Below, one piece after another: positions 8,468-24,613 of a DNA stretch of 64,000 nt. Position numbers and translations under genes: made by a program. The notes under the pieces were generated by a model. That model did not search any database. It was given only the letters and a program-made list of their open reading frames with translations, and was not told the DNA's origin. Origin of the DNA: a virus; the IMG/VR virus record IMGVR_UViG_3300014565_000223; one strand, 5' to 3'. Positions within the stretch are counted from its first letter, which is position 1. Each line of letters starts with the position of its first letter.

Positions 8468-9379
8468 ATGTATAACGAAGATAGAAAACAAAGGTTTTAC
8501 GAATTTAAGTTAAAAACTGTTGCAAGCGTTACTCCTCTTGTGCCTAGATTTAAGAGAGTTGCGCCGTTTGAACATATGTATCAAAAGGATTTATGTGACT
8601 TTAATTTAAATGAGATTACAGAAATGTATAAGTTGTTCAAATTTACAACATTAGAGTCCATTATTGTAGTAAATAATACTCTTACACAATATACGGACTG
8701 GTGTGTTAATGAGAATTTAGTGTTAAATGGACAAAATATCTATGCAACTATCACACCTGATATGCTGGCAGCACTATTAAATAAGACATTGTTAAATCAT
8801 CAGATTGTATCAAGAGACACGATTTTAACATGGATCGAAGCATTAAAGAATCCTAGAGATCGATTCATGATTCTGAGCATTTTTGAATATGGCAAGTCTA
8901 AAGATTTTGAAGACACGATTAGAGCAAAACTTGATGATATCGACGTAGAAAATCATACAATGAAATTGTATTCCGGAAGAGTTGTAAATGTAAGTGAAGC
9001 ATTAATTTTAACTGCACAAAAGAGTAATATGACAATGGAATTAACATATCCATATGGAACTAAATCCAAACTCATGGATGATGGAACCATTATAAAAAGA
9101 TCTCATATTGTAAAAGATGATCCGCATTGTCTTGGAAGGCAAATGTATAATTCATTAGCAGCAGCATTGAAGTCTATAGATGTATCATATATGACTGCTG
9201 AAAAAATTAACATTTCCGGACAAATTCATATGACAAATGAATTAATCCGGAAGTATAATTCAAATAAAAACAAGATTTTATATGATGTTGAAACTCGGTC
9301 TATGATTGAACACCAATATGGAATTAAGATTAATAGACCTTCATATTTTCTTAAAAAATATGGTGACTATTTAATATAG
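8468..9379 (+). CDS. hypothetical protein (303 aa)
   Basis: TAAATG junction with the upstream gene. Confidence 0.5.
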   Translation: MYNEDRKQRFYEFKLKTVASVTPLVPRFKRVAPFEHMYQKDLCDFNLNEITEMYKLFKFTTLESIIVVNNTLTQYTDWCVNENLVLNGQNIYATITPDMLAALLNKTLLNHQIVSRDTILTWIEALKNPRDRFMILSIFEYGKSKDFEDTIRAKLDDIDVENHTMKLYSGRVVNVSEALILTAQKSNMTMELTYPYGTKSKLMDDGTIIKRSHIVKDDPHCLGRQMYNSLAAALKSIDVSYMTAEKINISGQIHMTNELIRKYNSNKNKILYDVETRSMIEHQYGIKINRPSYFLKKYGDYLI

Positions 9380-9452
9380 TCGCCATGTTTAAATAAAGTA
9401 ACAAGTTAAATTAACTTTCATTAAAATCAAATTTATTACGAGGAACAAAAAA

Positions 9453-9788
9453 ATGGTTAGAGAATTTGTAAAGAATGCAAGTAAAGTAGCTCAGAAAATC
9501 GATATTATGTTTGAAAAAGCAGCATATGACAATAAAACTGTTGCGGTACATTTCTCTGTAGGAGAAAAAGAATCTGCAATAATATCTCATATGCAGTTGA
9601 ATCCAGTTAATATTACAGTAAATGATAATATTATTACTTTTGAAGAGGGAACAGCAGAGCATTATATTGATATTTCTCAGTTTGATTCAGTCAAATGTGA
9701 TGACGAGTGCGTTAACGATATCGCGGATGCAACAATTGATATGATGTGTGATCATTGGTCAGTACATTTTGATATTTTGACGATTTAA
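9453..9788 (+). CDS. hypothetical protein (111 aa)
   Basis: ORF with RBS. Confidence 0.45.
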   Translation: MVREFVKNASKVAQKIDIMFEKAAYDNKTVAVHFSVGEKESAIISHMQLNPVNITVNDNIITFEEGTAEHYIDISQFDSVKCDDECVNDIADATIDMMCDHWSVHFDILTI

Positions 9789-9812
9789 TTATACATAATA
9801 CAGGAGGAAAAA

Positions 9813-11813
9813 ATGAACAAGATTGAAGAAATGAAAGCATTGGTTGAAAAACTTAATCAGTACCGAGATGCTTATTATAATAATGCAGAAAGTATTGTTA
9901 CGGATCATCAGTATGATGATCTGTGTGATCAGTTGGAAAAAATGGAAAAAGAAACAGGAGTTATTTTAAGTAATTCTCCAGTCCATAGTGTTGGATATGA
10001 AGTAAAAAGTAAATTAGAGAAAATTGAGCATTCACATTTAATGATGTCTCTTGATAAAACTAAAGATGTGAATATACTTCGAAAATTTATTGGTGATAAA
10101 GATTCTTTGCTAATGTGTAAGATGGATGGATTGACAATTCTTTTGACGTATGAAGATGGAGAGCTGATCCAGGCTGAAACTCGCGGAAACGGCGTCACAG
10201 GAGAAATTATTACTCACAATGCAAAGGCGTTCGAAAATATTCCTATGCATATTAATCAGAAAGGCCACGTTGAAATTGAAGGAGAAGCTATTATTACATA
10301 TACAGATTTTGAGAAAATTAATAATTTAATTAAACACGAAGAAGATAGATATAAGAACCCGCGAAATCTTGCTTCAGGATCAGTCAGACAGCTAGATAGT
10401 AAGATAGCAGCCAAACGTCATGTTCGTTTTATAGTATGGAAGGTACCTGCCGGTATGGATGAACTACCTTTAATGTCAGCAAGATTTGAAAAAGCAAGAG
10501 AACTTGGATTTGATATTGTACCCTATATTCGTGTATATAAAGAAAATCAGAATCTTGAAGAGCTTATTAATCTGTTAAAGGAAAAGGCAGCATACTTATC
10601 TTATCCAATTGATGGGCTTGTTGCTGCATATAATGATATCGCTTATGGATTATCACTTGGAGTCACAGATAAGTATCCACGTCATTCTCTGGCATACAAG
10701 TTCTATGATGATGAATTTGAGACAGTTTTGACTGATATTGAATGGACTATGGGTAAATCTGGACAATTAACGCCTACAGCAGTTTTTGAACCGGTCGATA
10801 TTGATGGAACATCTGTAAGCAGAGCGAGTCTACACAATGTGAGTATATTCAAAGGATTTTATCTCCATAAATATGATACCGTATCTGTGTATAAGGCAAA
10901 CCAGATAATTCCGCAGATTTCTCAAAACATAACAAGAGGTTATAATACCGGTGAAAAGTTTATAATTCCTAAAATATGTCCAATCTGTGGAGAACCAGTG
11001 TCTGTCGTAAAAGAGAACGATTCTGAAGTATTGATGTGCATGAATGCTGGATGCAAAGGCAAACTTTTGGGTGAGATGAATGCTTTTGTAGGGAAAAAGG
11101 CCCATGATATTAATGGATTATCTGAGGCCACATTGCAGCTATTGATTGATACTGGGCTTGTGACATCACCAATTGATCTGTATTATTTGAAGGATCATTC
11201 TACAGAATTGTCCAGATTACCTAGAATGGGAGCAAAGAAAATTGCGAATATTTTAGATTCTATTGAGTCTAGCAGGAATACTACCATAGAAAAATTTATT
11301 GTAGGATTAAATATTCCGTTAATTGGTGGTAGAGCTGCAAAGGATATTGCTAGATATGAAGAAATAAGAACCAGGGAATTAGGAATGCTATATCCATTTG
11401 AAACTTTTATTAAAGATGCTGCTTCTGATTTTAATTTTACCTGTATTGAAGGATTAGGGACGGAGCGAAATATTTCTATCCATAGATATTTTAAGGAAAA
11501 TTATGATTACGTTGTTGCTTTGGCAGAACAGTTCATATTTTCGAAACTTAATAATGATAAAATATCTTCTGAAAGCGATTCATTGTCCGGAAAGAAATTC
11601 TGTATCACTGGGAAGTTACATATTTTTGCTAACCGGGATGAACTTGTGGCGGATATAGAATCAAAAGGAGGGAAAGTTGTGTCCGGAGTTACAAAGGCAA
11701 CTGATTATCTAATTACCAATGATAAAAACAGTGGATCTAGTAAAAATAAGAAAGCTTCTGAGTTGAATATTCCTATTATCAGTGAAGAAGAATACAAAAA
11801 CAAATTAAATTAA
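9813..11813 (+). CDS. ligA: NAD+-dependent DNA ligase
   Basis: KMDGL adenylation motif, CPICGEP...C..C zinc finger, HhH region and C-terminal BRCT (GKKFCITGKL). N-terminus typical of LigA. Confidence 0.9.
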   Translation: MNKIEEMKALVEKLNQYRDAYYNNAESIVTDHQYDDLCDQLEKMEKETGVILSNSPVHSVGYEVKSKLEKIEHSHLMMSLDKTKDVNILRKFIGDKDSLLMCKMDGLTILLTYEDGELIQAETRGNGVTGEIITHNAKAFENIPMHINQKGHVEIEGEAIITYTDFEKINNLIKHEEDRYKNPRNLASGSVRQLDSKIAAKRHVRFIVWKVPAGMDELPLMSARFEKARELGFDIVPYIRVYKENQNLEELINLLKEKAAYLSYPIDGLVAAYNDIAYGLSLGVTDKYPRHSLAYKFYDDEFETVLTDIEWTMGKSGQLTPTAVFEPVDIDGTSVSRASLHNVSIFKGFYLHKYDTVSVYKANQIIPQISQNITRGYNTGEKFIIPKICPICGEPVSVVKENDSEVLMCMNAGCKGKLLGEMNAFVGKKAHDINGLSEATLQLLIDTGLVTSPIDLYYLKDHSTELSRLPRMGAKKIANILDSIESSRNTTIEKFIVGLNIPLIGGRAAKDIARYEEIRTRELGMLYPFETFIKDAASDFNFTCIEGLGTERNISIHRYFKENYDYVVALAEQFIFSKLNNDKISSESDSLSGKKFCITGKLHIFANRDELVADIESKGGKVVSGVTKATDYLITNDKNSGSSKNKKASELNIPIISEEEYKNKLN

Positions 11814-11822
11814 CTTTTACTA

Positions 11823-11851
11823 TTGACAAATGCAAATAATGGTGATATAGT
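11823..11851 (+). promoter_or_regulatory. sigma70-like promoter TTGACA-17-TATAGT
   Basis: Consensus -35, 17-nt spacer. Embedded in the repeat AAATTAAATTAACTTTTACTATTGACA. Confidence 0.6.
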
Positions 11852-11899
11852 TGACCTATCAAAACGAATTAGATTAACTCAATCAGAAAGGCATGAACA

Positions 11900-12532
11900 A
11901 TGATATGTTACTATTTAAAAGGAAAAAATGGAGAGTACATCGCAAGAGATCCAACAGGAAGAATCAAATTAGTATCTGATCTTGGTGATGCACTCTTGGT
12001 TCCTGAAATTGAAAAGAAAAAGATTAAGGCAATTCAAGCAAATAATATTCCAGACGTATTAAAAAAATTTGGACCATATGAAATTTGTGAAACCGATTAT
12101 AATGGAGTTGAAGCAATTACGACAGATGATATAGTTGGTGAAATTATCGGTAGTATAAATGAATTTTCAAGTAAGATGAATGAAATTACTGATTATTCAA
12201 AAGAACTTAATTCTATTATTTCATATACTGATTTACAAATTTCAGACATTTTGCATTATATTGAATTTCATAAGTTTTCTGCGGCAGAAGGATATAAATT
12301 ATGCAAAAAGTTGCAAGAGATTTGTGATAGACGAAGAGAAGCCAAAAATAAAATACAAATTATAAACACGATAAAACATCAATCGTGTGCAAGTGTTTTA
12401 TCTGGAAATGCTACTAAAATAATAGAAAAAATTGTACCAGATAAAAAATATACTCCAAGAGTATTTGATGAATTGTTCAAAAAGAATCAGTCACGAATAA
12501 GAAAAGAAAAATCAGTGAAAATAAAAATTTAA
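11900..12532 (+). CDS. hypothetical protein (210 aa)
   Basis: ORF. Confidence 0.45.
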   Translation: MICYYLKGKNGEYIARDPTGRIKLVSDLGDALLVPEIEKKKIKAIQANNIPDVLKKFGPYEICETDYNGVEAITTDDIVGEIIGSINEFSSKMNEITDYSKELNSIISYTDLQISDILHYIEFHKFSAAEGYKLCKKLQEICDRRREAKNKIQIINTIKHQSCASVLSGNATKIIEKIVPDKKYTPRVFDELFKKNQSRIRKEKSVKIKI

Positions 12533-12555
12533 TTAAACAATAAGGAGATAAAAAT

Positions 12556-14622
12556 ATGTTTAAAGATTTTGTAAAGGCAATCCAGAAAAATTTACAGCAG
12601 ATGTCTAAAGATTCTTCAAGATTATTCACAGTAAATGTGGATACCGAGGAGCTTTATAATTTATATCTGGATTCGTTTCCGGCAGGTACAAATGAAATTT
12701 ACAGAGAAAGAAGAGAATATGACTGTAGTTGCTGTAGACATTTTATCAGAGACGTTGGTAACGTTGTATCTATTAAAAATGGTGAGTTACATACCATTTG
12801 GGGAATTAATCCAGTATCAGATGATAAATATAATGTAGTCGCAGCTGCGCTTGATGCCTATGTAAAACAGAAAGCGGTATTAGGGGTATTCCTCAAAAAA
12901 GAGAAACGAATTGGTACTCCTGAAAATAGAGAAATGCTCCCGACAGGAAAAATTAATAAATACGAGCATTTCTTCGTAGATCTGCCAGAAATTTGTATCT
13001 TTAAGGAATGTTATGGACATACACTTGAAGGTGATTTAAGTCAATTCAGAGATGTCCGTAATGTATTTAAACGTTCTCTTGATGAAATTAGTAAAGAAGC
13101 TGTAGATACTGTACTTGAACTGATTGCTCAAAATTCTTTATATAAAGGTGCCGAATGGAAAAAGCAACTTACTGAATTTAAGAATTATCAGAAAGAATAT
13201 GGAAAGCTTACGGATGAACAGAAAGAACTTTGGATCTGGGAAAAGTCAATTGCTGCAGGTGCCGTTATCGGTAAGATTCGTAACCATAGTATTGGAACAT
13301 TGCTGGTAAATATTTCCGAAGGAATGGATCTTGACCTTGCCGTTAGAAAATATGAGCAGATTGTAGCCCCTGTAAATTATAAACGTCCAAAGGCAATTTT
13401 TACAAAGAAGATGCTTGAAGATGCAAAGAAGACTATTACAGAACTTGGTTATATGGATTCATTACAGAGAAGATTTGCTACCTTGGATGATATCACAGTG
13501 AACAATATACTTTTCTCTAATAAAGACGCAGCAAAGAGAATTACCGGCGCTATGGATTTGTTTGATGAAATGGAACAGGATGTTGCAATTGATCCAAAAC
13601 GATTCTCTAAGGTAGAGGAAATAAGTGCAGAAGATTTCATTAAGAATGTTCTGCCTGTAGCGAAAGAATTGGAAGTATATTTGGAGAATAAACATATTCA
13701 GAATATGGTATCTTTGATTGCTCCAGAAGTTGCTGATGCGAAAACAATGTTCAAATGGAACAATGGAATGTCTTGGGCGTATACCGGTAATATTACAGAT
13801 TCAGATATCAAAGAAAATGTAAAAGCTGCTGGTGGTTCAGTCACAGGCATTGTAAGATTTTCTATTCAATGGAATGATAAAGATGGAAAGGATAATTCTG
13901 ACCTTGATGCACATTGTATTGAACCAAAAGGTGGAGAGCATATTTATTTTGGTCACAAAAAAGCACGATCCGGTGGAGAATTGGATATTGATATTACTCA
14001 GCCAGTTGATCAGTGCTGGAATAGTAATGGAGTTGCCGTTGAAAATATTACATTTCCATCTAAAGAACGCATGATTCCTGGTACATATAAGTTTTTTGTA
14101 AATCAGTTCGCATACAGAGGATCTCAGGGATTTAAAGCCGAAATCGAAGTAAATGGAGAAATTCATTCTTATGAATATAATACTCCAGTACGTGGCGATG
14201 TAGATGTTGCAGAAGTAATTCTTGATCAGGCAGGTAATTTTAAAATTGTGGACAAACTTCCAGGAAATTGTTCTATGATCAGTAAAGATGTATGGGGAAT
14301 TAAAACTCTGCAGTTTACACCGGTATCTGTTGTATGCTACTCACCAAATTACTGGGATGAACAGAAGGGAATTGGTCATCAGCACTTATTCTTTATGCTG
14401 AAGGACTGCATCAATCCAGAAGAGCCGAATGGATATTATAATGAATTCTTGAAACCGGAACTTGAGCAGCACCGAAGAGTATTTGAAGCGCTTGGAGCAA
14501 AAGCACATGTAAAAGATGTTGATGATCAGCTTTCAGGAGTAGGATTTTCACTTACAAAGAGAAATGATCTAATTATTAAAGTAAAAGGCGCTACAGAGCG
14601 AGTATTAAAAATCAAATTCTAA
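12556..14622 (+). CDS. large hypothetical protein (688 aa) with N-terminal CSCCRHF motif
   Basis: AAGGAGATAAAAATATG RBS. Confidence 0.55.
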   Translation: MFKDFVKAIQKNLQQMSKDSSRLFTVNVDTEELYNLYLDSFPAGTNEIYRERREYDCSCCRHFIRDVGNVVSIKNGELHTIWGINPVSDDKYNVVAAALDAYVKQKAVLGVFLKKEKRIGTPENREMLPTGKINKYEHFFVDLPEICIFKECYGHTLEGDLSQFRDVRNVFKRSLDEISKEAVDTVLELIAQNSLYKGAEWKKQLTEFKNYQKEYGKLTDEQKELWIWEKSIAAGAVIGKIRNHSIGTLLVNISEGMDLDLAVRKYEQIVAPVNYKRPKAIFTKKMLEDAKKTITELGYMDSLQRRFATLDDITVNNILFSNKDAAKRITGAMDLFDEMEQDVAIDPKRFSKVEEISAEDFIKNVLPVAKELEVYLENKHIQNMVSLIAPEVADAKTMFKWNNGMSWAYTGNITDSDIKENVKAAGGSVTGIVRFSIQWNDKDGKDNSDLDAHCIEPKGGEHIYFGHKKARSGGELDIDITQPVDQCWNSNGVAVENITFPSKERMIPGTYKFFVNQFAYRGSQGFKAEIEVNGEIHSYEYNTPVRGDVDVAEVILDQAGNFKIVDKLPGNCSMISKDVWGIKTLQFTPVSVVCYSPNYWDEQKGIGHQHLFFMLKDCINPEEPNGYYNEFLKPELEQHRRVFEALGAKAHVKDVDDQLSGVGFSLTKRNDLIIKVKGATERVLKIKF

Positions 14623-14655
14623 TACAATTTAATTAAACAAAGAAGGGAGAAAGTT

Positions 14656-15150
14656 ATGAAATTTAAAGAAGCATTTGAAGAAATGAAATCTGGAATTCCA
14701 GTAAAACTTCCGTCATGGGCGGGTTATTGGTGGTGGGATGAAGAATCCCAGACAATCCTTATGTACACAAAAGATGGCGGCTGTCTGGATATAAGAGAAA
14801 CACAGAATGTGGAGTATACGCTTCAGAATATTCTTTCCGATGAGTGGGTTTATGCGGATAGTCGGAACTGTCCAATACTTGGTGGAGAAGCAACATTCTC
14901 ATTCGGAGAAGCGATTAAGTACCTGAAAAGAGGTATGAAAGTAGCGAGAAAAGGATGGAATGGAAAGAAACAGTACATTCAGCTTGCTACTGGGATTTCA
15001 TATAAGACTACTGACGACGAGATTGTAAATTGTGAGCATGATGCAATCGGAAATAAAGCCATCGCTTTTGTTGGAACATCTGGCGTACAGATGGGATGGC
15101 TTGCTACCCAGTCTGATATGCTCGCAGAAGACTGGATGTTTGTTAAATAA
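14656..15150 (+). CDS. DUF2829-like protein, tandem duplicated module
   Basis: MKFKEAFEEMKSG...WAGYWW and FGEAIKYLKRGMKVARKGWNGK both match the DUF2829 (Gp49-like) signature. Confidence 0.5.
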   Translation: MKFKEAFEEMKSGIPVKLPSWAGYWWWDEESQTILMYTKDGGCLDIRETQNVEYTLQNILSDEWVYADSRNCPILGGEATFSFGEAIKYLKRGMKVARKGWNGKKQYIQLATGISYKTTDDEIVNCEHDAIGNKAIAFVGTSGVQMGWLATQSDMLAEDWMFVK

Positions 15151-15177
15151 AATTATATGTATTGGAGGAATAAAAAC

Positions 15178-15558
15178 ATGGAACTTACAAAAATTTTTGA
15201 GGCGGCAACAAGATATAAATACAGATTCCCGTTCAAAGGAATGATTTCAGTAGAGGATTTATGGGATCTGAAATTGCAGGATTTGGATTCAGTATTTAAA
15301 CTGCTGAATAAAGAGAAAAAACAGAGTGATGAAGAAAGTCTGTTACAGGTTAAATCTGAAGCAGACCAGGCGCTGGAAAATAAAATTCAGATTGTAAAAT
15401 TCATCGTACAGGTAAAACAGGCAGAAACTGCAGAGAGATTAGCTGCAAAAGATAAGAAAGAGCGCAATCAGAAGATTATGAGAATCATTGAGAGAAAGCA
15501 GAACGAAGCTCTGGAAGGCAAGAGTCTTGAAGAACTGACAGCTATGTTAGAGGAGTAA
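15178..15558 (+). CDS. coiled-coil protein
   Basis: ATG 15178 with GGAGG RBS; charged heptad-like sequence. Confidence 0.5.
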   Translation: MELTKIFEAATRYKYRFPFKGMISVEDLWDLKLQDLDSVFKLLNKEKKQSDEESLLQVKSEADQALENKIQIVKFIVQVKQAETAERLAAKDKKERNQKIMRIIERKQNEALEGKSLEELTAMLEE

Positions 15559-15561
15559 TAT

Positions 15562-15735
15562 ATGGGAATACTCGGAGATATTGCGGCATTTCTGTTTATG
15601 GTGATTGTGATATTGATTTTACTACTAATTTTGTGTTTTATATGTGCTGCGGTATTAGCTGTAATTGTAGAAGCTATATACGAGGAAACCGGAAAATTAG
15701 AAGCTTTGTATAATATTTTACGTCATCTTCTTTAA
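15562..15735 (+). CDS. small single-pass membrane peptide (57 aa), C-terminal TGKLEALYNIL
   Basis: ATG 15562 directly after the upstream stop; hydrophobic core. Paralog of 15916..16107. Confidence 0.4.
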   Translation: MGILGDIAAFLFMVIVILILLLILCFICAAVLAVIVEAIYEETGKLEALYNILRHLL

Positions 15736-15739
15736 GGGA

Positions 15740-15919
15740 AATAAAATTCAGATTGTAAAATATATTGTTAAGTTTAAGCAGGAAGAGATTGAAGAGCGTC
15801 TTCAGGCAAAAGACAAAAAAGAATACAATCAGAAGCTGCTTGAACTGATCGAACGCAAACAGAATGAGGAGCTTGCCGGAAAGTCTATTGAGGAACTGCA
15901 GGCAATGCTTAAGGCATGA
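15740..15919 (+). pseudogene. start-less duplicated copy of the C-terminal ~60 aa of the 15178..15558 gene
   Basis: Reads NKIQIVKYIVKFKQEEIEERLQAKDKKEYNQKLLELIERKQNEELAGKSIEELQAMLKA, against ...NKIQIVKFIVQVKQAETAERLAAKDKKERNQKIMRIIERKQNEALEGKSLEELTAMLEE upstream. 23-nt identical core at 15378-15400 and 15739-15761. No in-frame ATG. Confidence 0.4.
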
Positions 15920-16107
15920 TGTTGATTACAGAATTGTTAAATATTACATTACTTACTGTGTACTTTGTATTGGTATCAATGGGAATATTAGTCTTTATAG
16001 TGTTTCTTACAACCTTTATGTACGCAGTAGTAATGATAATATATAGATTCACTGGAAAGCTGGGAAAGCTTTACAGAATACTAGAAGAAATAGAAAGGAA
16101 ATTTTAA
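15916..16107 (+). CDS. small membrane peptide (63 aa), C-terminal TGKLGKLYRIL
   Basis: ATGA overlap with the preceding frame; stop abuts the ATPase ATG. Paralog of 15562..15735. Confidence 0.45.
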   Translation: MMLITELLNITLLTVYFVLVSMGILVFIVFLTTFMYAVVMIIYRFTGKLGKLYRILEEIERKF

Positions 16108-18729
16108 ATGAAGAACGGCTTATCAAATGAACAGGTCGAAGAGAGTCGAAGATTACATGGAAGTAACAAGCTTCCTGAACCTGAATTGAAAAAATGGTAT
16201 CATTTTGCTAAGGAAGCATTAACTGAACCAATTACTATGATTCTAATAATAATTGCTTTATTCCAGTTAGTTTTAGGAGCTATGGGAGTAATGTCTCTTT
16301 CTGAACCTGTAATGATTATAGTAGTTTTAGCTATTGTTACTGAAATTGCTGTTAAGACAGGTCTAGGCATACAGAAATCTGCAGCAGAGTTAAGAGCAAA
16401 AACGGCAGTTAGATATTGTGATGTTGTCCGAGATGGAAGCGTACAGACAATTAATAAAGATGATCTGGTAGTAGGTGATTTAGTTCTATTGAGAACTGGA
16501 CAAGAGATTTTCGCAGATGGTTTTATTGTTGAAGGAGAAATTTCTGTTAATAATGCCGCTATCAATGGAGAGACAAAAGAATGTAGAAAAATTCCTAGTG
16601 CTAATTATAAACATGTTAAAACAACATCTACTGCTGCATATACGGATCAGTGTTCTCTCTTTGCAGGAACAGTTATTATGTCTGGTGAAGGAAAAATGAT
16701 TGTTACAGATGTTGGTGTTAATACAGTTAACGGTGATACTCTTGTCAAAATGCAGACTTTAGAGCCTCCTAAGACAGCTCTTGATATTGCTCTGGATCAT
16801 TTGTGTGATTTTATTTCAAAATGGGGAACAATTGCGGCAGCATTAGCATTTGTAATTATGACAATTGCAGGTATCTTAAATGCTGGAAGTTTAAGTCAGT
16901 ATTTCTCAGGAAACATTCTTGAAAATATTCAGAAAGTAGCACAGAATACCTCAAATGCATTAACAATTATTGTTGCGGCTGTACCGGAAGGTCTGCCACT
17001 CATTGTAAAACTTGTAACTAAACAGAATGTATCGACAATGGAAAAATTTAATATTCTTGCGAAGAATACTGGTAAAATTCCTGAATTGGCGTATGTTAAT
17101 TTAATTTGTACGGATAAGACAGGAACTCTCACAACAGGTGAAATGACTCCGGTAGCTATGATCAGTGGAGATTGTCATGATATTCTTAACGAGAAAAATG
17201 CGCTCAGACAAATGATTGATGTAAATATCTGTATGAATAATAGTGCAGTATTTGATTCCAATGGAAATATTACTGGTGGAAACTCTATTGACAGAGCAGT
17301 TCTTGGTATGATTACTCCAGAAGAAGTAAATGATATCAGCAATAGATTTAATATTAAAGAAAAACTTCCATTTAGCAGTAAAAATAAATATTCTTCTATT
17401 ACGTTAAACGATGAAGAAAATAATATTCTGAAATTTTATAAAGGTGCTCCAGAGAAAATCATTGCTAAATGTACACACATTGTTGATGCAGACGCACATT
17501 TAAGGGAATTTAAAGAAGAAGATAAAAATGAACTAAAATCATATATAAAAGGTATGACAGAAAAAGCAATGAGGTGTATTGCTTTAGCGGTATCAAATGA
17601 ATCAAATGATAGTGAATTGCCAGATATGGGATTGCTTGGTGTGATTGGTGTTGTGGATCCGGTTAGAAATGAGGTGCCAGAAGCTGTGAGTATAGCACAT
17701 AAAGCCGGTATACAAGTAATTGAAATCACCGGAGACTGCATGGAAACAGCAAAAGCAGTTGCAGCAGAAGCAGGTATTTATAAACCTGGAGATCTTGCAA
17801 TTACAAATGATGAATTTGAAGCAATAACAGATGAAAAAGCGAAAGAAATTATTCCGGATTTAAGAGTAATCTCCAGATGTTCACCAAATACAAAGCTTCG
17901 TCTTGTAACATTAGCACAAGAAATTGGAATGTCTGTTGCTATGACCGGTGACGGTGTAAATGATGCGCCTGCACTAAAGAAAGCAGATGTAGGCTTTGGA
18001 ATGCAGGATGGGTCTGATGTGGCAAAAGAAGCAGCAGATATTGTTTTGACAGACAATAATTTTGCAAGTGTGGTAAAGGCAGTCGAACTTGGTAGAACAT
18101 TTATGCATAACATTATGATGTTCCTTGAATTCCAGCTGCCTATCAATATTTCGTTGTTGATCTTAAGTATGGTATTTCCAATTATTTCTGGTGGCTCTGC
18201 TCTATTAGCAGCAGTTCAGATCCTTATTGTAAATATCATCATGGATTCACTTAACTCATTAAGCTTTGGTGGAGAACCGCCAAAAGAGGAATATATGAAT
18301 GAAGAACCTATCATGAAAGGATCCGGATTATTTATCCGTGGAGCGAAAGGGAGAATTGCATTAAGTTCAATTGTATTTATTGCTTTATTTGGTGTAATTA
18401 CATTTGGTCCAGTTGGAAATATGTTTGCAACAAAACTTTCGGCTATGACAGCGAGATTCGCTTTATTGTGTTTAATGGCAGTATTTAATGGATTCACTAT
18501 TAGAACAGATAGTATGAATCTTTTCAAAGGAATTAAAAATAACAAATTATTTGTGTATATCGCATTGGGTATTTTTGCAATGACTGTAGTTTTGTGTAAC
18601 TTTGTAGGAAATCTAGTACAGACAACTCCAATGGATGTTAAACAGTGGATTATAGTCTTAGTGACAGCATTTATGGTTGTGCCTGTAGATTGGATTAGAA
18701 AAGCAATTTGTAAGAAAGGAAGTAACTAA
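16108..18729 (+). CDS. P-type cation-transporting ATPase (type II, Ca2+-ATPase-like)
   Basis: DKTGTLT phosphorylation site, PEGLP in M4, TGDxxxTA, GDGVNDAPALKKADVG hinge. ~10 TM segments; 873 aa. Confidence 0.9.
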   Translation: MKNGLSNEQVEESRRLHGSNKLPEPELKKWYHFAKEALTEPITMILIIIALFQLVLGAMGVMSLSEPVMIIVVLAIVTEIAVKTGLGIQKSAAELRAKTAVRYCDVVRDGSVQTINKDDLVVGDLVLLRTGQEIFADGFIVEGEISVNNAAINGETKECRKIPSANYKHVKTTSTAAYTDQCSLFAGTVIMSGEGKMIVTDVGVNTVNGDTLVKMQTLEPPKTALDIALDHLCDFISKWGTIAAALAFVIMTIAGILNAGSLSQYFSGNILENIQKVAQNTSNALTIIVAAVPEGLPLIVKLVTKQNVSTMEKFNILAKNTGKIPELAYVNLICTDKTGTLTTGEMTPVAMISGDCHDILNEKNALRQMIDVNICMNNSAVFDSNGNITGGNSIDRAVLGMITPEEVNDISNRFNIKEKLPFSSKNKYSSITLNDEENNILKFYKGAPEKIIAKCTHIVDADAHLREFKEEDKNELKSYIKGMTEKAMRCIALAVSNESNDSELPDMGLLGVIGVVDPVRNEVPEAVSIAHKAGIQVIEITGDCMETAKAVAAEAGIYKPGDLAITNDEFEAITDEKAKEIIPDLRVISRCSPNTKLRLVTLAQEIGMSVAMTGDGVNDAPALKKADVGFGMQDGSDVAKEAADIVLTDNNFASVVKAVELGRTFMHNIMMFLEFQLPINISLLILSMVFPIISGGSALLAAVQILIVNIIMDSLNSLSFGGEPPKEEYMNEEPIMKGSGLFIRGAKGRIALSSIVFIALFGVITFGPVGNMFATKLSAMTARFALLCLMAVFNGFTIRTDSMNLFKGIKNNKLFVYIALGIFAMTVVLCNFVGNLVQTTPMDVKQWIIVLVTAFMVVPVDWIRKAICKKGSN

Positions 18730-18730
18730 A

Positions 18731-19498
18731 ATGGGATTTTTGGGAAAATTATTCGGAAAAAAAGATGAGGAAACAGCAGTAGAGTTATCTTCTGCTGTAA
18801 CTCAGCAACCTGTATATGAAGAAAAATTACAGACAATTGATATGTCTAAGCACAATGAAAATCTTGGCAAAGTACTTATTGATATGTCTAAGGGAAGCAA
18901 GATTGATATGACAAAACATACGGCTAGAGTAGCTCTTGCAATGGATTATTCAGGAAGTATGGATTGGCTGTATGATAATGGATCTGTACAGGAAACCATT
19001 TCTCGTTTGTTGCCTATTGCTCTAAGATTTGACGATAATGGAGAACTTGAGAGTTGGCTGTTCTCAAATGGAGCAGAGCGCTTAAAAGCTGCTAACGCTG
19101 ATAATTATAGTAGTTATGTTAAAAATGTTATGAAAAAAGCTCATATGTATATGGGTGGTACTAATTATGCTCCTGTATTGAAAGAAATGGTTACATATTA
19201 TAAAGATATCGAGCCAAGTGAGATTCCAGCATTTATCATCTTTATTACAGATGGTGAGAACAGTGATACTTTTGCCACCAATGCAGTTATTAAAGAGCTT
19301 TCAGAGTACAACATCTTCGTGCAGTTCATAGGAATTGGAGATGAAGATTTTGACTATTTAAAATCTCTTGATGGTATGAAAGGTAGAAAACATGACAACA
19401 CCGGTTTTACAGCAGTAAAAGACATGAATAAAATGTCTGATGAGCAGCTGTATACAGAGATTCTTCGTCAGTATAAAGATTGGCTCAATAAAAAATAA
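18731..19498 (+). CDS. von Willebrand factor A domain protein (TerY-like)
   Basis: MIDAS-like DYSGSM; sits beside a TerD-domain gene. Confidence 0.6.
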   Translation: MGFLGKLFGKKDEETAVELSSAVTQQPVYEEKLQTIDMSKHNENLGKVLIDMSKGSKIDMTKHTARVALAMDYSGSMDWLYDNGSVQETISRLLPIALRFDDNGELESWLFSNGAERLKAANADNYSSYVKNVMKKAHMYMGGTNYAPVLKEMVTYYKDIEPSEIPAFIIFITDGENSDTFATNAVIKELSEYNIFVQFIGIGDEDFDYLKSLDGMKGRKHDNTGFTAVKDMNKMSDEQLYTEILRQYKDWLNKK

Positions 19499-19557
19499 TT
19501 CTATACTGTAAATAATAAATTATATATAAATAACGTAAATTAAAGGAGATTAAGATT

Positions 19558-20196
19558 ATGGCAACAATTAATATGAGCAAAAAACAGAAAATCAGTATGA
19601 CAAAGGAAGATGGATCTGCAGTAAAGAATTTTTTTATTGGTGTGAACTGGGAGCAAAATAGATATGCCGGAGAAGCCGATATTGATTTTGACATCAATGG
19701 AATGCTTACTAATGGAGATCGGAAGGTGACATATCCGGGAGATTTGGTAAATTATAATACATATGGAGATGGATCTGCTTATCCGTGGATTGATTATTCC
19801 GGAGATAATCTCACTGGAAATGATTCTCAGGGCATGATGTTTAATGGAAAACATTACGATGAATATTTTATTGTCCACGCAGATCAGTTTCCGGAGAATA
19901 AAACAGACTTTACCATTTGTCTTACTATTTTTAGAGCGGTACAGCGCCTTCAGAATTTTGGTATGGTAAGTAATGCAACTATAATGATCTGTGATTATGA
20001 TAATCCAGACGGAGATAAGTACGAATATAATCTGTCTGAGAATGAGAATTTTGAAAATCTGAACGCTGTAGAGATGGGAAGGCTTTATAAATACGGAGAT
20101 GGATTTAAATTCCAGGCACTTGGATCAGGATATACCGGAGGAATGACAGAATTGTTTAAGAATTTCGGTCTTGACATTGATGAGGGAAGGGATTAA
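19558..20196 (+). CDS. TerD-domain protein
   Basis: ISMTKEDGSAVKNFFIGVNWE...DIDFDINGML matches the TerD/CAPAB signature (GLgWD...DLD). Confidence 0.6.
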   Translation: MATINMSKKQKISMTKEDGSAVKNFFIGVNWEQNRYAGEADIDFDINGMLTNGDRKVTYPGDLVNYNTYGDGSAYPWIDYSGDNLTGNDSQGMMFNGKHYDEYFIVHADQFPENKTDFTICLTIFRAVQRLQNFGMVSNATIMICDYDNPDGDKYEYNLSENENFENLNAVEMGRLYKYGDGFKFQALGSGYTGGMTELFKNFGLDIDEGRD

Positions 20197-20198
20197 TC

Positions 20199-20942
20199 AT
20201 GAAAATTACATTTGGAGCAGTATTATTAATTGCTATTATTGTTGCAGCGTTTTTCTTTTTCAGAAGTAAAACAGGGAAACGAGTAAAAACAAGAGCAACG
20301 GGTACAGCAACGGAGGCTATCATTAAAGATGCCTCCACCCCGGAAGGGGCAAAAGCTTATTATAACGAAGCTATTGATGCTAAAAAGGATCAGTATAATA
20401 AGGCAAATCAGATCTATACACAGATGCTTGGCAAGATCACTTCTTATGAGGAGCAGCTTCGAGCATTACAAAAAGAAAATATGCAGCTTAATTTAAACAT
20501 TAACGCTTGTATCGATAAAGGCGATGATGAAGGGGCTAAAGTATATTTGAAGAAACAGCAGGATGCAGAAGATAAGATTGCTGTTTTAAAAGATACACTT
20601 AAAGAACTTAGATCTAATGCAACCGCTCAAAAGGAAATGCTTGACAGTGCGCTTCAGGCGGTAAATGATCTTAAGTCTGAAAAGGATAAGGCAATTCTTA
20701 CTCTTGAAACGGCGCAGGTTACAAAATCCTTACAGGTTACTCCTGGCGCTTCAGACAAGGAAGAAGACAAAATGCTTGAAGTTGTTCGTGAAGGTATCAA
20801 AAAGCAAAAAGAAGCTGCAGACGGTACAAAGGCTGCATTTGATGCATCTGCAGATGTACAGCAGAAGCGCCTTGATAAGAAGATGAAAGACGAGGCCATT
20901 GATAAGAAACTGCAGGAGTTAAAAGCAAGGAAAGGAAAATAA
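20199..20942 (+). CDS. PspA/IM30-family protein with N-terminal TM helix
   Basis: N-terminal hydrophobic helix, then a long amphipathic coiled coil with PspA-like KGDDEGAKVYLKKQQDAEDKI. Confidence 0.55.
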   Translation: MKITFGAVLLIAIIVAAFFFFRSKTGKRVKTRATGTATEAIIKDASTPEGAKAYYNEAIDAKKDQYNKANQIYTQMLGKITSYEEQLRALQKENMQLNLNINACIDKGDDEGAKVYLKKQQDAEDKIAVLKDTLKELRSNATAQKEMLDSALQAVNDLKSEKDKAILTLETAQVTKSLQVTPGASDKEEDKMLEVVREGIKKQKEAADGTKAAFDASADVQQKRLDKKMKDEAIDKKLQELKARKGK

Positions 20943-20943
20943 A

Positions 20944-21036
20944 ATGGTCGCATTAAATATGGGAACATTTGTTGTATGCCTCGCGCTTGCCTTTCTGGCA
21001 GGTATTCTGGTTACAAAAATTAAATTAAAGAAATAA
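20944..21036 (+). CDS. 30-aa hydrophobic peptide (MVALNMGTFVVCLALAFLAGILVTKIKLKK)
   Basis: ATG 2 nt after the PspA-like stop; single TM. Not in track (<60 aa). Confidence 0.3.
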   Translation: MVALNMGTFVVCLALAFLAGILVTKIKLKK

Positions 21037-21048
21037 AGGAGAAAAATT

Positions 21049-21570
21049 ATGGGATTTACATTATTTGGAGAAAAATATAAATATGAAGTAGACAGTATTA
21101 ATATTGGGATTTTTTGTCCAGATGGGACATTATTAATAGTTTTAAAACTTAAAGATGGTACATATAAATCAATTGATGTTAATCTTGGAGCAGAAAAATA
21201 TAAGTCATTATGCAAAGAGAATAACATTACAAACAATGTGCCGGTTCTTGTTACACAAGAACATGTTAATAAATTAGATAAAGAAATAAAACCTAAGTAC
21301 AAATGGGGAGACTGGAAAGAAGGTTACACTTTTTTTATGGATCCATTTTCTCGTAGAGAAAAACTATTAGTATATAATGTTAGAACTAATGGTAAGAGAG
21401 TGCAGGTAGAATTCGACGGTGTAAAAGCTATGGCTTCTTGTAATATTGAAGCAGGAGATCAATTTGATTATAAGTTTGGTAGGGAACTGGCAGAGCGAAG
21501 ATTGATTGCGAAATTGATTGAGAAACGTGCAAATTCATATTATATAAGCAAAATCAACAAAACAAATTAA
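21049..21570 (+). CDS. hypothetical protein (173 aa)
   Basis: AAGGAGAAAAATTATG RBS. Confidence 0.5.
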   Translation: MGFTLFGEKYKYEVDSINIGIFCPDGTLLIVLKLKDGTYKSIDVNLGAEKYKSLCKENNITNNVPVLVTQEHVNKLDKEIKPKYKWGDWKEGYTFFMDPFSRREKLLVYNVRTNGKRVQVEFDGVKAMASCNIEAGDQFDYKFGRELAERRLIAKLIEKRANSYYISKINKTN

Positions 21571-21584
21571 ATTAACTTTGCATA

Positions 21585-21613
21585 TTGACAAACGAAACTT
21601 GATATGCTATACT
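21585..21613 (+). promoter_or_regulatory. sigma70-like promoter TTGACA-17-TATACT
   Basis: Consensus hexamers. Part of the repeat AAATTAAATTAACTTTGCATATTGACA, upstream of the tRNA. Confidence 0.6.
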
Positions 21614-21710
21614 AAATACATAGTCAAGGATGACAACAGCACAGAGGAGTGAAAGCTCCCTGTGCTAAATAAAAAGAAGAAAGAAATTTAATTATACAAA
21701 CAATGAATGT

Positions 21711-21795
21711 AGCGGTATGATGAAATTGGCTAGACATAATAGACTTTGACTCTATTGAGCAGTAGCTCGTGTGGGTTCGAATCCCACTACCGCCG
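21711..21795 (+). tRNA. tRNA, type II (long variable arm), anticodon UUG by manual fold; atypical
   Basis: T-arm GTGGG-TTCGAAT-CCCAC. Acceptor AGCGGTA/TACCGCC with an A1.C72 mismatch. 3-bp D-stem ATG/CAT. Anticodon stem ATAGA/TCTAT with loop CTTTGAC. Variable stem-loop GAGC-AGTA-GCTC. Confidence 0.6.
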
Positions 21796-21874
21796 TTTGG
21801 CAAGTATTTTATACAAATATACTCCAGCCGAATTGCAGAGAAATATAATTTAATTATACAAAAAGGAGATAAAA

Positions 21875-22993
21875 ATGAGTAAAATTATTAGTACAGGTTC
21901 CACTTTTAGAATCTACGGAGATGATCTTGTAACACATAATCAACTTCCGGCACAAATTTATTCTATCAGATGTTCACAGATGACAGGATTTTATTTAGAG
22001 AAACATGCTGATATTGAGATCAATGAAGATAAAATATACGGTGTGCACATGGAAAAAGTAAATAAAGTATTAAATGCTTTTCCAAATTTCAATAAAAATC
22101 TTGGCGTGATCTTATCTGGAGCCAAAGGAATTGGCAAATCTTTATTTTCTAAGATTCTTGCTGTAGAAGCTGTAAAAAAAGGATTACCAGTAATTATTGT
22201 TGATACATATATCCCTGGAATTGCTAATTTTATTGAAGAAATTGAACAGGAAGTATTAGTAATGTTTGATGAGTTTGATAAAACATTTGGTAATATTAAA
22301 GCTGCTGATGGTATGGCTAATCCACAAACAGAGCTGCTTACATTATTTGATGGATTAGCTCAAGGGAAAAAGTTATATGTTATTACTTGTAATAATCTTA
22401 ATACTCTGAGTGATTATTTGGTAAATAGACCTGGAAGATTTCATTATCATTTTAGATTTGATTATCCGACAGATTCTGAAATTACAGAATATATGAGAGA
22501 CAAGTTACACGAAGAATACTATGGCGAAATTAGTAAGGTAATTGCATTCTCTAAAAGAGTCAGCTTGAATTATGATTGTTTAAGAGCTATTGCATTTGAA
22601 CTTAATACAGGCTTACAATTTCAAGAAGCAATTAAAGATATGAATATCCTTCATATAAATAATACTGTTTATATAACTACTTTGTATACTAAAGATGGTA
22701 AAAAAGATACAGAAGAAAAAACTCTTGACTTGTTTGATAAGACTTCTAATCATAGTTTATATTTTACAATAGATGGAAAATGGTTCTATACAAAATTTTC
22801 TGGTGTTGATGTAAGATATGATTTTGACAGACACATTGATTTTGTTGATGGAAAAGATGTTGAAATTATTCCGGATGAAGACTATGCGGATCTTACAAAA
22901 GAAGAAAAGAAAAAATACGAAAATATTAAAATTGATCGTATCGTTTTTGCAAGAAAAGAAGAAAAGGGACTTCATTATAATCTTTCTGTATAA
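21875..22993 (+). CDS. AAA+ family ATPase
   Basis: Walker A GAKGIGKS, Walker B IIVDTY...FDEFD. Confidence 0.6.
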   Translation: MSKIISTGSTFRIYGDDLVTHNQLPAQIYSIRCSQMTGFYLEKHADIEINEDKIYGVHMEKVNKVLNAFPNFNKNLGVILSGAKGIGKSLFSKILAVEAVKKGLPVIIVDTYIPGIANFIEEIEQEVLVMFDEFDKTFGNIKAADGMANPQTELLTLFDGLAQGKKLYVITCNNLNTLSDYLVNRPGRFHYHFRFDYPTDSEITEYMRDKLHEEYYGEISKVIAFSKRVSLNYDCLRAIAFELNTGLQFQEAIKDMNILHINNTVYITTLYTKDGKKDTEEKTLDLFDKTSNHSLYFTIDGKWFYTKFSGVDVRYDFDRHIDFVDGKDVEIIPDEDYADLTKEEKKKYENIKIDRIVFARKEEKGLHYNLSV

Positions 22994-23160
22994 AAATTTA
23001 ATTAAACATTCCGATGAATAAAAACTTTAGATATGTGGAAGTTCGGTTATAAGCATGTGGCTTTCATTTTACTTTTTACCTCTTATAACTCGTTTGAAGC
23101 AGGTCTTACGAGTATAAATAAACTGTATAAGGGTAAGCCGGTAGTAACCTTATACAATAA

Positions 23161-23240
23161 GCGGATATGACGGAACTGGCAGACGTAGAAGGCTCAAACC
23201 CTTCGGAGAAATCGTGTGGGTTCGAATCCCACTATCCGTA
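23161..23240 (+). tRNA. tRNA-Leu (anticodon CAA), type II
   Basis: Acceptor GCGGATA/TATCCGT (G1.U72). D-arm ACG-11 nt loop with GG-CGT. Anticodon stem GAAGG/CCTTC, loop CTCAAAC. T-arm GTGGG-TTCGAAT-CCCAC. Confidence 0.75.
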
Positions 23241-23592
23241 TTCGGACTATTCTTACGGATTTACTTGATGGCCTAAATAGTAATGAGGAGAAATAAGTCC
23301 GAGAGGTTAACCTGTATATTATATAGCGTCTATAGGACATTAAAGAAGATTGAAAAGTTGGTGGAATACTGGAACCCAGTGATGAGGAAGCTGCGAATGT
23401 GTTGGTTGTATGGTTTGGACGCATTGAAAGGAAACATTTATATAGATGTGCTTTGTGCTAATGAGGTTGTGAGTTGGCGTTGGAGGATGATCTGGTAGCA
23501 GATGTGTAATTAGTTATGAAGCAAAAAAGTAATTGAGTCAGCGAGGTAGAGGTGAGTGATGGGGCAACGGAATGGTGACGACTGTTCGTGTA

Positions 23593-23622
23593 GCTGATGC
23601 GATTGCATAAGCAAGTTTTTTT
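23593..23622 (+). terminator. terminator-like hairpin followed by T7
   Basis: GCTGATGC-gatt-GCATAAGC (one mismatch), then AAGTTTTTTT. Confidence 0.45.
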
Positions 23623-23675
23623 ACAGATATTGTTACATTTCTATATTGTGGGTGTAATTATAACGCCCACTACAT

Positions 23676-23749
23676 GGAAACTTAGCTCAGTTGGTTAGAG
23701 CAACCGGCTCATAACCGGTCGGTCCTGGGTTCGAGTCCCAGAGTTTCCA
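23676..23749 (+). tRNA. tRNA-Met or Ile2 (anticodon CAT), elongator-like
   Basis: Acceptor GGAAACT/AGTTTCC. D-arm GCTC-AGTTGGTTA-GAGC. Anticodon stem ACCGG/CCGGT, loop CTCATAA. T-arm CTGGG-TTCGAGT-CCCAG. G1-C72 paired. Confidence 0.85.
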
Positions 23750-23833
23750 TTAAAAGAAAAATGAAAGGAGAGATATAAAATTCTTATAAATAATCCCGTA
23801 AAAATAATAATTTAAAATAAAGGAGATTAAATT

Positions 23834-24613
23834 ATGGCTATCGTTGGTGCAATCTTAGGTGATATTGCAGGTTCACAATATGAATTTGGTAGACCAATTG
23901 ATTTAGATTGGAAGAATTGTAAGTTATTTACTGATAGATGTTATTTTACAGATGATACTGTAATGACACTTGCTGCTAAATTAGCAATTATTAATAATAA
24001 ATCTTTCTCAGATTCATATAGAGAATGGGGAAGAAAATATCCAAATGCAGGATATGGAAATAATTTTGAAACGTGGTTAAGATACGATGATGAAACTGCA
24101 TATGGAAGTTGCGGTAATGGATCTGCAATGAGATGTTCTTATATTGGAGAACATTTTAATACAGAAAAAGAAGTTATCGAATGGGCTACAAAGTCTGCTG
24201 AGTGTACACATAATCATCCAGAAGGAATTAAAGGGGCGGTTGCAACGGCAATGTGCATTTATATGGCAAGAACAGGTGTTACAAAAGCAGAAATCTATGA
24301 ATATGTGAAGAAATACTATCCAAAAGATGATTACAAATATAGTGTTGAATATAAAATTGAAGACTATAGAAAGACATATCAGTGGAATGAAATTTGTCAA
24401 GGAAGTGTACCTGTTGCAATAAGATGTTTTCTGGAAAGTGATGATTATGAAAGTTTCTTGCGAAATGTATTCTCATTAAAGTGTGATATGGATACGTTAT
24501 GTGCTATAGGTGGTGGAATTGCGGAAGAATTTTATCACGGAACTGGATTAGACAATGATTACTTACTTGGACATTACCTGAATAGACAATTGTACAGGAT
24601 TGTAGAAATGTGA
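23834..24613 (+). CDS. ADP-ribosylglycohydrolase (DraG/ARH family)
   Basis: N-terminal GAILGDIAGSQYEFG plus YFTDDTVMTLA, typical of ADP-ribosyl-[protein] hydrolases. Confidence 0.75.
   Translation: MAIVGAILGDIAGSQYEFGRPIDLDWKNCKLFTDRCYFTDDTVMTLAAKLAIINNKSFSDSYREWGRKYPNAGYGNNFETWLRYDDETAYGSCGNGSAMRCSYIGEHFNTEKEVIEWATKSAECTHNHPEGIKGAVATAMCIYMARTGVTKAEIYEYVKKYYPKDDYKYSVEYKIEDYRKTYQWNEICQGSVPVAIRCFLESDDYESFLRNVFSLKCDMDTLCAIGGGIAEEFYHGTGLDNDYLLGHYLNRQLYRIVEM

Follow-up and report, generated by a model that had tools for sequence, protein, structure and literature searches.

Why should a sequence repeat carrying two small membrane peptides stand directly in front of the gene for a Ca2+-type pump in a phage genome? 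The locus in question lies in IMG/VR virus record IMGVR_UViG_3300014565_000223, of which one stretch of 64 kb was analysed (hereafter the window). A preliminary description had read the repeat as a tandem duplication suggestive of recent rearrangement, and the peptides as possible regulators of the pump. We arrive at a different answer: the repeat is the scar of a ~5-kb pump/TerD/PspA cassette that was swapped in from a related phage, and the peptides, judging by their distribution among relatives, would belong with the phage backbone. The features on which this argument turns are the following (nt, nucleotides; aa, amino acids; TM, transmembrane; RBS, ribosome-binding site).

15178-15558, + strand: phrog_2018 gene, backbone (A-type) allele; small N-terminal domain and long C-terminal helix, 'cc1'
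15378-15400, + strand: first copy of the 23-nt core, inside cc1; exact match
15562-15735, + strand: tm57, 57-aa membrane peptide; N-terminal TM stretch and C-terminal amphipathic tail TGKLEALYNIL
15736-15748, + strand: left recombination junction; RBS of the displaced A-type permease gene (AAGGGAAATAAA), then ATT at 15746-15748
15746-15919, + strand: cc2, putative 5'-truncated relic of the donor phrog_2018; holds the second 23-nt core (15739-15761)
15916-16107, + strand: tm63, 63-aa membrane peptide, donor counterpart of tm57; start ATG overlapping the cc2 stop TGA
16108-18729, + strand: predicted PMCA-type (P2B-like) Ca2+ P-type ATPase, 873 aa; Pfam E1-E2_ATPase, Cation_ATPase_N, Cation_ATPase_C and Hydrolase

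As far as its form is concerned, the repeat had been described correctly. Its 23-nt core, AAATAAAATTCAGATTGTAAAAT, was found by exact-match search at exactly two sites in the window, 15378 and 15739, with 0 expected from 100 shuffles, and two units of ~360 nt each align head to tail. Alignment and open reading frames (ORFs) agree that each unit joins a coiled-coil segment to a small membrane peptide (57 and 63 aa). An ungapped repeat scan of the window came back without this repeat, presumably owing to its identity thresholds, so that the repeat is demonstrated by the alignment and the exact-match search. The coiled-coil segments cc1 (15382-15555) and cc2 (15743-15916) share 70% of their residues (57 aa) and ~69% of their DNA, and the protein identity of tm57 and tm63 is 35%. 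Both peptides contain hydrophobic stretches, with a maximum 19-residue Kyte-Doolittle mean of 2.8-3.6. The second coiled-coil copy is likewise startless, its frame (frame 2) running open for 60 codons without ATG, GTG or TTG to the stop TGA at 15917-15919. Stop-codon recoding as a means of opening this frame was considered and rejected, because the frame upstream is dense in stop codons of all kinds.

The origin of the repeat becomes apparent when the window is compared with related contigs, which fall into an A-type, a B-type and a C-type arrangement. In the A-type (14 contigs, all pump-less), phrog_2018 with cc1 is followed by tm57 and then by an ABC-transporter cassette composed of a BPD_transp_1 permease, an ABC ATPase, a 177-aa ORF, a PspA-like protein and an NMT1-like binding protein fused to OmpA. 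The B-type, represented by 4 viral contigs and a 499-kb contig of the cultured Ruminococcus sp. AM36-2AA, carries a divergent phrog_2018' (intact, 126 aa), whose N-terminal domain is 81% identical and of which cc2 is the genuine C-terminus; tm63 follows through an ATGA stop/start overlap, and then the pump. The C-type, to which the window belongs together with 12 contigs from at least 7 datasets, repeats the A-type arrangement, after which come the cc2 fragment, tm63 and the pump. Each copy of the repeat has a single-copy counterpart, 96-100% identical, in a different lineage.

Sequence identity along the window locates the borders of the exchange. The window is ~97% identical to the A-type over 9160-15747 and again from 20944 onwards, the A-type having its 4.25-kb ABC cassette in between, and flank identity falls from ~97% to ~75% at the junction; the stretch 15740-20976 is matched only by B-type sequence. 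Since the C-type relative L018 is 91.6-92.3% identical to the B-type across the whole cassette and 71-75% identical in both flanks, the direction of transfer is that of a B-like cassette entering an A-like backbone. The left junction can be read to the base from a three-way comparison of the window with A-type (L081, L087, L094) and B-type (L023, L106, L109) sequences. The A-type reads CTTTAAGGGAAATAAAAT and then GAAGACA, which is the RBS and ATG of the permease, and the B-type reads GATAATAAGAT and then TCAGATTGTAAAAT, which is the interior of phrog_2018'. The window consists of the A-type left half and the B-type right half, which places the crossover at 15745-15748, in an AATAA(A/G)AT microhomology, and ATT (15746-15748) now stands where the A-type permease has its ATG. 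Of the second 23-nt core, the first 9 nt are A-type intergenic sequence and the other 14 nt a conserved stretch of the gene. The right crossover lies at the ATG of the next small gene, 20944. Base composition shows no break at the cassette borders. We also considered that the A- and B-types might derive from the window type by deletion, and rejected this: the B-type N-terminal domain and flanks are not as window-like as cc2.

Taken together with the findings below, these comparisons make it highly probable that window positions 15748-20943 (~5.2 kb) are a B-type cargo cassette recombined into the A-type backbone of large Ruminococcus-type gut phages. The A-type parent would have carried phrog_1735, phrog_2018 and tm57 ahead of the ABC-transporter cassette, and the B-type parent phrog_2018', tm63, the Ca2+ P-type ATPase, a vWA-TerF protein, TerD, a PspA-like protein and a ~30-aa micropeptide. 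An illegitimate left crossover would have joined the tm57-permease intergenic region of the former to the interior of phrog_2018' of the latter via AATAA(A/G)AT, and a homologous right crossover would have taken place at the start of the shared micropeptide gene. The expected outcome of such an exchange is an apparent tandem repeat, a startless and decaying cc2, and two peptides from two parents side by side. A later exchange then probably brought in the ATPase and vWA alleles of a third lineage. Over window 16100-19400, which covers the pump and vWA, identity is 96-100% to the L001-type lineage, found in a different genomic context (~97% for the two alleles), and 65-80% to other C-type sequences, and window 19500-20900 (TerD and PspA-like) is 99-100% identical to the C-type (100% for L018) and 60-76% identical to L001. 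A further divergent patch was seen in L002, at 17100-17800. With the mosaic cassette exchange known from moron or cargo slots in phages the locus shares breakpoints that fall sharply where genes meet, a junction in microhomology, the remnant of a truncated gene and a slot open to alternative cargo; there is nothing unusual in this respect, and the locus is a textbook example. What had first been noted is largely explained by ordinary phage mosaicism, together with a pump family already reported in 2026.

If the repeat arose by exchange, what are the two peptides? Both have the marks of genes. A GAGGAG Shine-Dalgarno sequence lies 7 nt upstream of tm57, which is present in 34 loci as 15 nucleotide alleles with a ratio of nonsynonymous to synonymous polymorphism (pN/pS) of 0.19. 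For tm63 the ratio is 0.22, and the peptide is 90-100% identical to its B-type counterpart, which is start/stop-coupled to an intact phrog_2018 gene. These figures argue that tm57 and tm63 are real genes under purifying selection, one per lineage, and not paralogs made in place. Their neighbour phrog_2018 was called mechanically as a 133-aa ORF (15157-15558); homologs align only from residues 4-8 onward, and the start is probably the ATG at 15178, giving 126 aa. The window protein matches its PHROG at an E-value of 1.3e-42 and its pN/pS is 0.07-0.11. A single-sequence AlphaFold2 model places a helix at residues 52-113, with low confidence (mean predicted local distance difference test, pLDDT, of 62, and below 50 in the N-terminal domain).

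The most durable alternative concerns these peptides. It holds that tm63, and perhaps tm57, are micropeptide regulators that bind the TM domain of the pump, as analogues of phospholamban, sarcolipin, KdpF or MgtS. Regulins such as phospholamban and sarcolipin, together with KdpF and MgtS/MgtR, resemble tm57 and tm63 in being small single-pass membrane peptides that lie beside, or act on, a P-type ATPase. The peptides of the window differ in showing no sequence similarity to them, in having the TM stretch at the N-terminus and in their lack of conserved co-occurrence with a pump. Regulins are tail-anchored; here the order is reversed, the TM stretch coming first and the basic or amphipathic tail at the end. 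The tentative label 'regulin/KdpF-like' given in the preliminary description could not be upheld, as neither peptide has a Pfam match to any regulin or KdpF family; tm57, tm63 and cc2 had no match in Pfam, PHROG or NCBIfam at all.

The distribution of the peptides bears on the same question. Upstream of 90 viral pump loci (those with upstream sequence, a few contigs having been fetched twice), tm63 was present in 26, all of B/C backbone, another small TM ORF in 3, and none in the remaining 61, whose upstream genes are highly variable. The peptide-less loci include pumps 89-97% identical to that of the window, situated behind an RlaP-like gene (97% for the L001 allele). Conversely, tm57 is retained in the 14 pump-less contigs, upstream of the ABC permease. 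Sampled chromosomal pump homologs of Ruminococcus/Oscillospiraceae (63-66% identity) are without tm57/tm63, TerD or PspA, and the two that were checked for context sit among housekeeping genes (DnaB_2/DnaI, LeuA and a CDF transporter). A profile search of IMG/VR for relatives of tm57 and tm63 returned only the same contigs, and the family is limited to one backbone lineage. As the peptides travel with the phage backbone and not with the pump, we regard them as unlikely to be dedicated pump regulators, contrary to what had been proposed; their conserved neighbour appears to be the phrog_2018 backbone gene. That tm63 travelled with the cassette at all is explained by the position of the crossover, which fell upstream of it. 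There is, in addition, weak support for the view that tm57 and tm63 serve as membrane partner or tether of the phrog_2018 coiled coil rather than as partners of the pump. We also asked whether tm57/tm63 are related to the 'YRPIG' TM peptides found ahead of the SPFH genes of L112 and L072; this was unsupported (hhalign probability 27%, then 9%).

Several observations weigh on the other side. The tm63 gene abuts the pump gene with zero gap, its end meeting the pump start codon directly in every B-type and recombinant locus; it moved together with the cassette and has stayed intact in 20/20 recombinant loci, though redundant with tm57 and beside a decaying relic; and both peptides are under purifying selection. 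Its variable sites within the recombinants (1 synonymous, 2 nonsynonymous) neither show nor exclude continued selection. Distant phrog_2018 homologs are without a peptide of the tm57/tm63 type, so that the pairing of peptide and phrog_2018 consists of adjacency and start/stop coupling in two lineages. Finally, a pump-associated small protein is not implausible in itself, because a 2026 report (PMC12880540) mentions, for the independent clade of Jug phages, a small, unrelated gene co-transcribed upstream of the Ca2+ pump and "perhaps regulating its activity". Weighing both sides, we consider a regulatory role of tm63, and perhaps tm57, improbable. A more general lesson is that a small ORF beside a pump should not be named a regulator before it has been checked whether the pairing is conserved.

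The same comparison of lineages bears on cc2. In intact B-type genes the segment shows 14 synonymous and 0 nonsynonymous variable sites; in the C-type fragments it shows 1 synonymous and 4 nonsynonymous ones (V>A, R>C twice, L>P), and in two C-type contigs from different datasets the frame is broken by a 1-nt deletion in an A-run. Because of this 1:4 versus 14:0 pattern and the frameshift allele, cc2 is best understood as a remnant no longer under selection, that is, as a decaying, 5'-truncated relic of the donor phrog_2018. One could suppose instead that cc2 is expressed and functional, either from the ATT at 15746, using the inherited Shine-Dalgarno sequence ahead of it, or through a +1 frameshift at the CUU_UAA_G ending tm57, which would produce a fusion of tm57 with a coiled coil. 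The frame does remain open over 60 codons in most alleles, the ATT falls exactly at the former A-type permease ATG, 7 nt after AAGGG, and CUU UAA G is similar to CUU UGA C, the site of the prfB shift. Yet A-type phages have CUU UAA G just as well, with nothing after it in the +1 frame, and the putative shift site has no Shine-Dalgarno-like stimulator upstream. Given also the relaxed, disruptive substitutions (L>P and the two R>C) and the broken allele, we find expression of cc2 very hard to credit.

A tandem duplication was the form of rearrangement originally suggested; it would be a recent in-situ event, in which a ~361-bp unit was doubled in one genome and the copies then diverged. The head-to-tail order, the 361-nt spacing and the identical 23-nt cores speak for it. 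However, the units differ in ~30% of their DNA and 65% of their peptide residues, each is 96-100% identical to the single copy of a different phage lineage, and the first 9 nt of the second core are the A-type intergenic ribosome-binding site and no part of a duplicated gene. The suggestion of a rearrangement therefore holds, and that of a duplication as its form does not: the repeat is the junction of two lineages, and duplication within one genome deserves even less credence than an expressed cc2. As for an assembly chimera of two co-occurring strains, A-type and B-type phages do occur together in one large dataset (3300045988), but the identical novel junction in 12 separate contigs of IMG/VR, spread over at least 7 datasets, with mutations accumulated on both sides since it formed, leaves this explanation with next to no probability.

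The main passenger of the cassette is the pump. All the motifs previously cited for an 873-aa type-II P-type ATPase were located in 16108-18729, with PEGLP at residue 293, DKTGT at 336 and GDGVNDAPAL at 614. The protein narrowly passes TIGR01517, the PMCA-type equivalog (511.7 bits against a cut-off of 507.05); the next-best models stay below their cut-offs (PMR1-type, 407.8 against 798; SERCA-type, 326.5 against 703), and the H+, Mg2+ and Na/K models fail by wide margins. Its best solved relatives in the PDB are plant ACA8, SPCA1, Listeria LMCA1 and PMCA1/2, and its membrane half is closest to the PMCA type, with VPEGLP in M4, FQLPIN in M5 (FQLTVN in PMCA1/ACA8) and VNIIMD in M6 (VNLIMD). We take the ligands of Ca2+ site II to be as in SERCA/PMCA, namely the Glu of PEGLP in M4, an Asn in M5, and Asn and Asp in M6. 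The assignment to a Ca2+-type P2 pump of the PMCA subfamily, as opposed to a non-Ca2+ subfamily, is thus supported by the sequence, and Ca2+ would by extension be its ion in vivo.

With DKTGT, PEGLP, FQLxxN and VNxIMD in place and the TIGR01517 cut-off passed, the protein is like the PMCA-type and bacterial Ca2+ pumps (ACA8, PMCA1/2, SPCA1, LMCA1). It differs from the eukaryotic PMCA/ACA pumps in that, at 873 aa, it has no calmodulin-binding autoinhibitory tail: residues 2-863 align to positions 53-875 of the 882 of TIGR01517, as in bacterial pumps. A further departure is found in the dephosphorylation loop of the A-domain (residue 153), which reads NGET, or NGES in some homologs, in place of the canonical TGES, the catalytic Glu being kept and the Thr replaced by Asn. 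This variant is clade-wide, as it occurs in all of the more than 100 viral and 16 bacterial homologs examined.

The preliminary description had called such a pump rare in phage genomes, which holds for GenBank isolates only. Among GenBank phages, megablast with 15100-18800 gave no match, and tblastn with the pump gave at most 33.5% identity, mostly to short unannotated records. IMG/VR, by contrast, holds at least 152 stretches encoding relatives of the pump, on contigs of ~50-250 kb, and PHROGs holds a family that matches it. Phage Ca2+ P-type ATPases had, moreover, already been published in 2026: PMC12880540 describes a host-derived Ca2+ P-type ATPase in gut phages, lists in addition four phages of 159-197 kb as well as Bacillota-like pumps, and notes terD genes and a pspA-like gene. 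Given the IMG/VR relatives, the PHROGs family and this report, the gene is not rare, and both it and the regulator idea have precedent. The phages of PMC12880540 have a Bacteroides host, whereas the lineage of the window has a Ruminococcus/Oscillospiraceae host. Here the pump stands in a fixed operon with a vWA or TerD gene, a TerD gene, a PspA-like gene and a micropeptide of ~30 aa, an operon not described in that report as far as it was consulted, and the small peptides upstream are not conserved with the pump. Ruminococcus-type phages, like Bacteroides jumbo phages, commonly carry Ca2+ pumps.

The genes that complete this operon in the window are listed below.

18731-19498, + strand: vWA domain protein, TerF C-terminal type; PF10138, E 7e-59
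19558-20196, + strand: TerD-domain protein; PF02342, E 4e-33; Klebsiella pneumoniae TerD 2kxt, E 1e-19, GDNxTG aligned
20199-20942, + strand: divergent PspA/IM30-like protein, 247 aa, with N-terminal TM helix; PF04012, E 1.6e-5
20944-21036, + strand: 30-aa single-pass micropeptide, MVALNMGTFVVCLALAFLAGILVTKIKLKK; right recombination junction at its start codon; missing from the preliminary description

In every locus with enough downstream sequence (~90, in several unrelated contexts), the pump is followed by vWA-TerF or one or two TerD genes, then TerD, then a PspA-like protein of ~250 aa; vWA-TerF takes the place after the ATPase in about half of the loci, and elsewhere one or two extra TerD genes stand there instead. 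The naming of the PspA-like protein requires some care: the window protein scores 25.1 bits with PF04012, below the gathering cut-off of 33.9, which counts against the assignment, and a PDB sequence search with it gave no match. PF04012 is nonetheless the top full-length match in 10/10 diverse homologs, two of which lie above the cut-off (40.7 and 35.3 bits). A promoter and terminator scan of 12000-22000 gave counts at chance level, so that no transcription-unit boundaries can be called.

The micropeptide belongs to a family of 27-39 aa with the consensus MIVLNxGxFxxCxxxxFxxG and a basic tail, represented by 41 peptide variants in 104 loci. In ~90% of pump cassettes, across all contexts, it lies -4 to +1 nt from the end of the PspA-like gene, and it persists in cassettes with a PspA-like protein of only 35% identity. 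It also occurs in the A-type phages, which have a PspA-like gene and no pump; bacterial chromosomal pump loci lack it, as do loci without the PspA-like cassette. Because of this pattern, we regard it as a better candidate than tm57 or tm63 for a subunit of the cassette; its distribution fits the PspA-like protein at least as well as the pump. Six cassettes are without it (L027, L079, L041, L058, L077 and L146), and in L113 (~5684-5776) the gene has an in-frame stop at codon 7 (MVALNM*TF...). A Pfam scan, the only database comparison made for it, gave no credible match; PF04846 (Herpes_pp38), at E 0.0021 and 18.4 bits against a cut-off of 26 bits, is at chance level.

What might such an operon do? 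It shares with Ter stress modules the presence and adjacency of TerD and vWA-TerF domains and the clustering of a PspA/IM30 homolog, and with the PspA-YdjGHI (SPFH) system of Bacillus subtilis (PMC8581546) a PspA homolog, to which the relatives L072 and L112 add an adjacent SPFH protein. It differs from both in that the PspA-like protein has its own TM anchor and that the module travels in phages, joined to a Ca2+ pump. TerD is known to bind Ca2+, and the TerD of the window aligns with the Ca2+-binding one of K. pneumoniae (PMC8779313). A fixed operon of pump, TerD-family and PspA-like genes, usually with the micropeptide, points to a function in Ca2+ handling and membrane stress and away from a lone auxiliary transporter. 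The pump may have been captured from Ruminococcus/Oscillospiraceae hosts and may work as a constitutively active Ca2+ exporter of the PMCA type, moving Ca2+ out of the infected cell without control of the calmodulin type. The TerD and vWA proteins, its probable partners along with the PspA-like protein, could bind or sense Ca2+, and the PspA-like protein, perhaps together with the 30-aa peptide, could stabilise the membrane, so that the operon as a whole would manage Ca2+ and envelope stress or membrane integrity during infection; tm57 and tm63 would meanwhile act with phrog_2018, for instance by tethering its coiled coil to the membrane. A bolder proposal, which we put forward as a tentative possibility with the odds against it, is that the five-gene unit is a mobile operon that, in the infected Ruminococcus cell, links membrane repair to the extrusion and sensing of Ca2+, for example so as to suppress a host response triggered by Ca2+ or envelope stress, and that the micropeptide, or tm63 in one lineage, is a true subunit either of the pump or of the PspA assembly. 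If this were true, that peptide would amount to a bacterial or phage counterpart of the regulins, of independent origin.

The genomic setting names a host. All long ORFs of the window lie on one strand and include NrdD and a DnaE-type polymerase that shows 37-45% identity to its counterparts in Clostridioides and Bacillus phages; judged by its genes, the window is part of a large phage of a Clostridia host. The full donor-type set (phrog_1735, phrog_2018', tm63, pump, vWA, TerD, PspA-like protein and micropeptide) is found in L130 (QTYB01000001.1, 330289-348874). Its location in a 499-kb contig of the isolate Ruminococcus sp. AM36-2AA suggests a prophage or a carried phage, and thereby a host; the cultured strain with its donor-type arrangement provides an experimental handle. 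One contig of 250 kb, IMGVR_UViG_3300029402_000234 (L013 and L018), contains a pair of pump cassettes that lie in different contexts, their pumps being 88% and 72% identical to that of the window; it may be that two related phages were joined in a chimeric or concatenated assembly, or that one genome has both copies.

The slot beside phrog_1735 and phrog_2018 holds the Ca2+ pump cassette, the ABC cassette or, in L112, an SPFH/Band-7 protein, and can be described as a variable slot that alternates three membrane-related cargoes. Coordinates of alternative cargo are 6590-10833 in L087, 6395-7767 in L112 and 11122-12314 in L072. The SPFH/Band-7 proteins in the slot are preceded by a 'YRPIG' TM peptide, and the SPFH gene of L072 follows a pump cassette; such neighbours recall the link between PspA and SPFH proteins known in B. 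subtilis (PMC8581546). An 808-aa protein resembling MVP-shoulder/SPFH proteins lies upstream of phrog_1735 in L112. The phrog_1735 protein itself (688 aa; 12556-14622, + strand) is upstream of the cassette in the B- and C-types and downstream of it in the L030 type. A TerD-like domain suspected by eye in its C-terminal part (DLDAHC...IYFG...GELDIDI) was rejected, BLASTP against the window TerD being not significant. Between phrog_1735 and phrog_2018, in some relatives only, lies a protein resembling Tad2 (Thoeris anti-defence 2; 14656-15150, + strand; PF11195, E 1.4e-23). Further upstream, an NAD-dependent DNA ligase (LigA-type, with BRCT domain) is encoded at 9813-11813 (+ strand), with an A-type indel near 10809-10955, and a cluster of four tRNA genes (Gln-TTG, Leu-CAA, Met-CAT and Lys-TTT) follows closely on the downstream side of the cassette, at 21710-25304.

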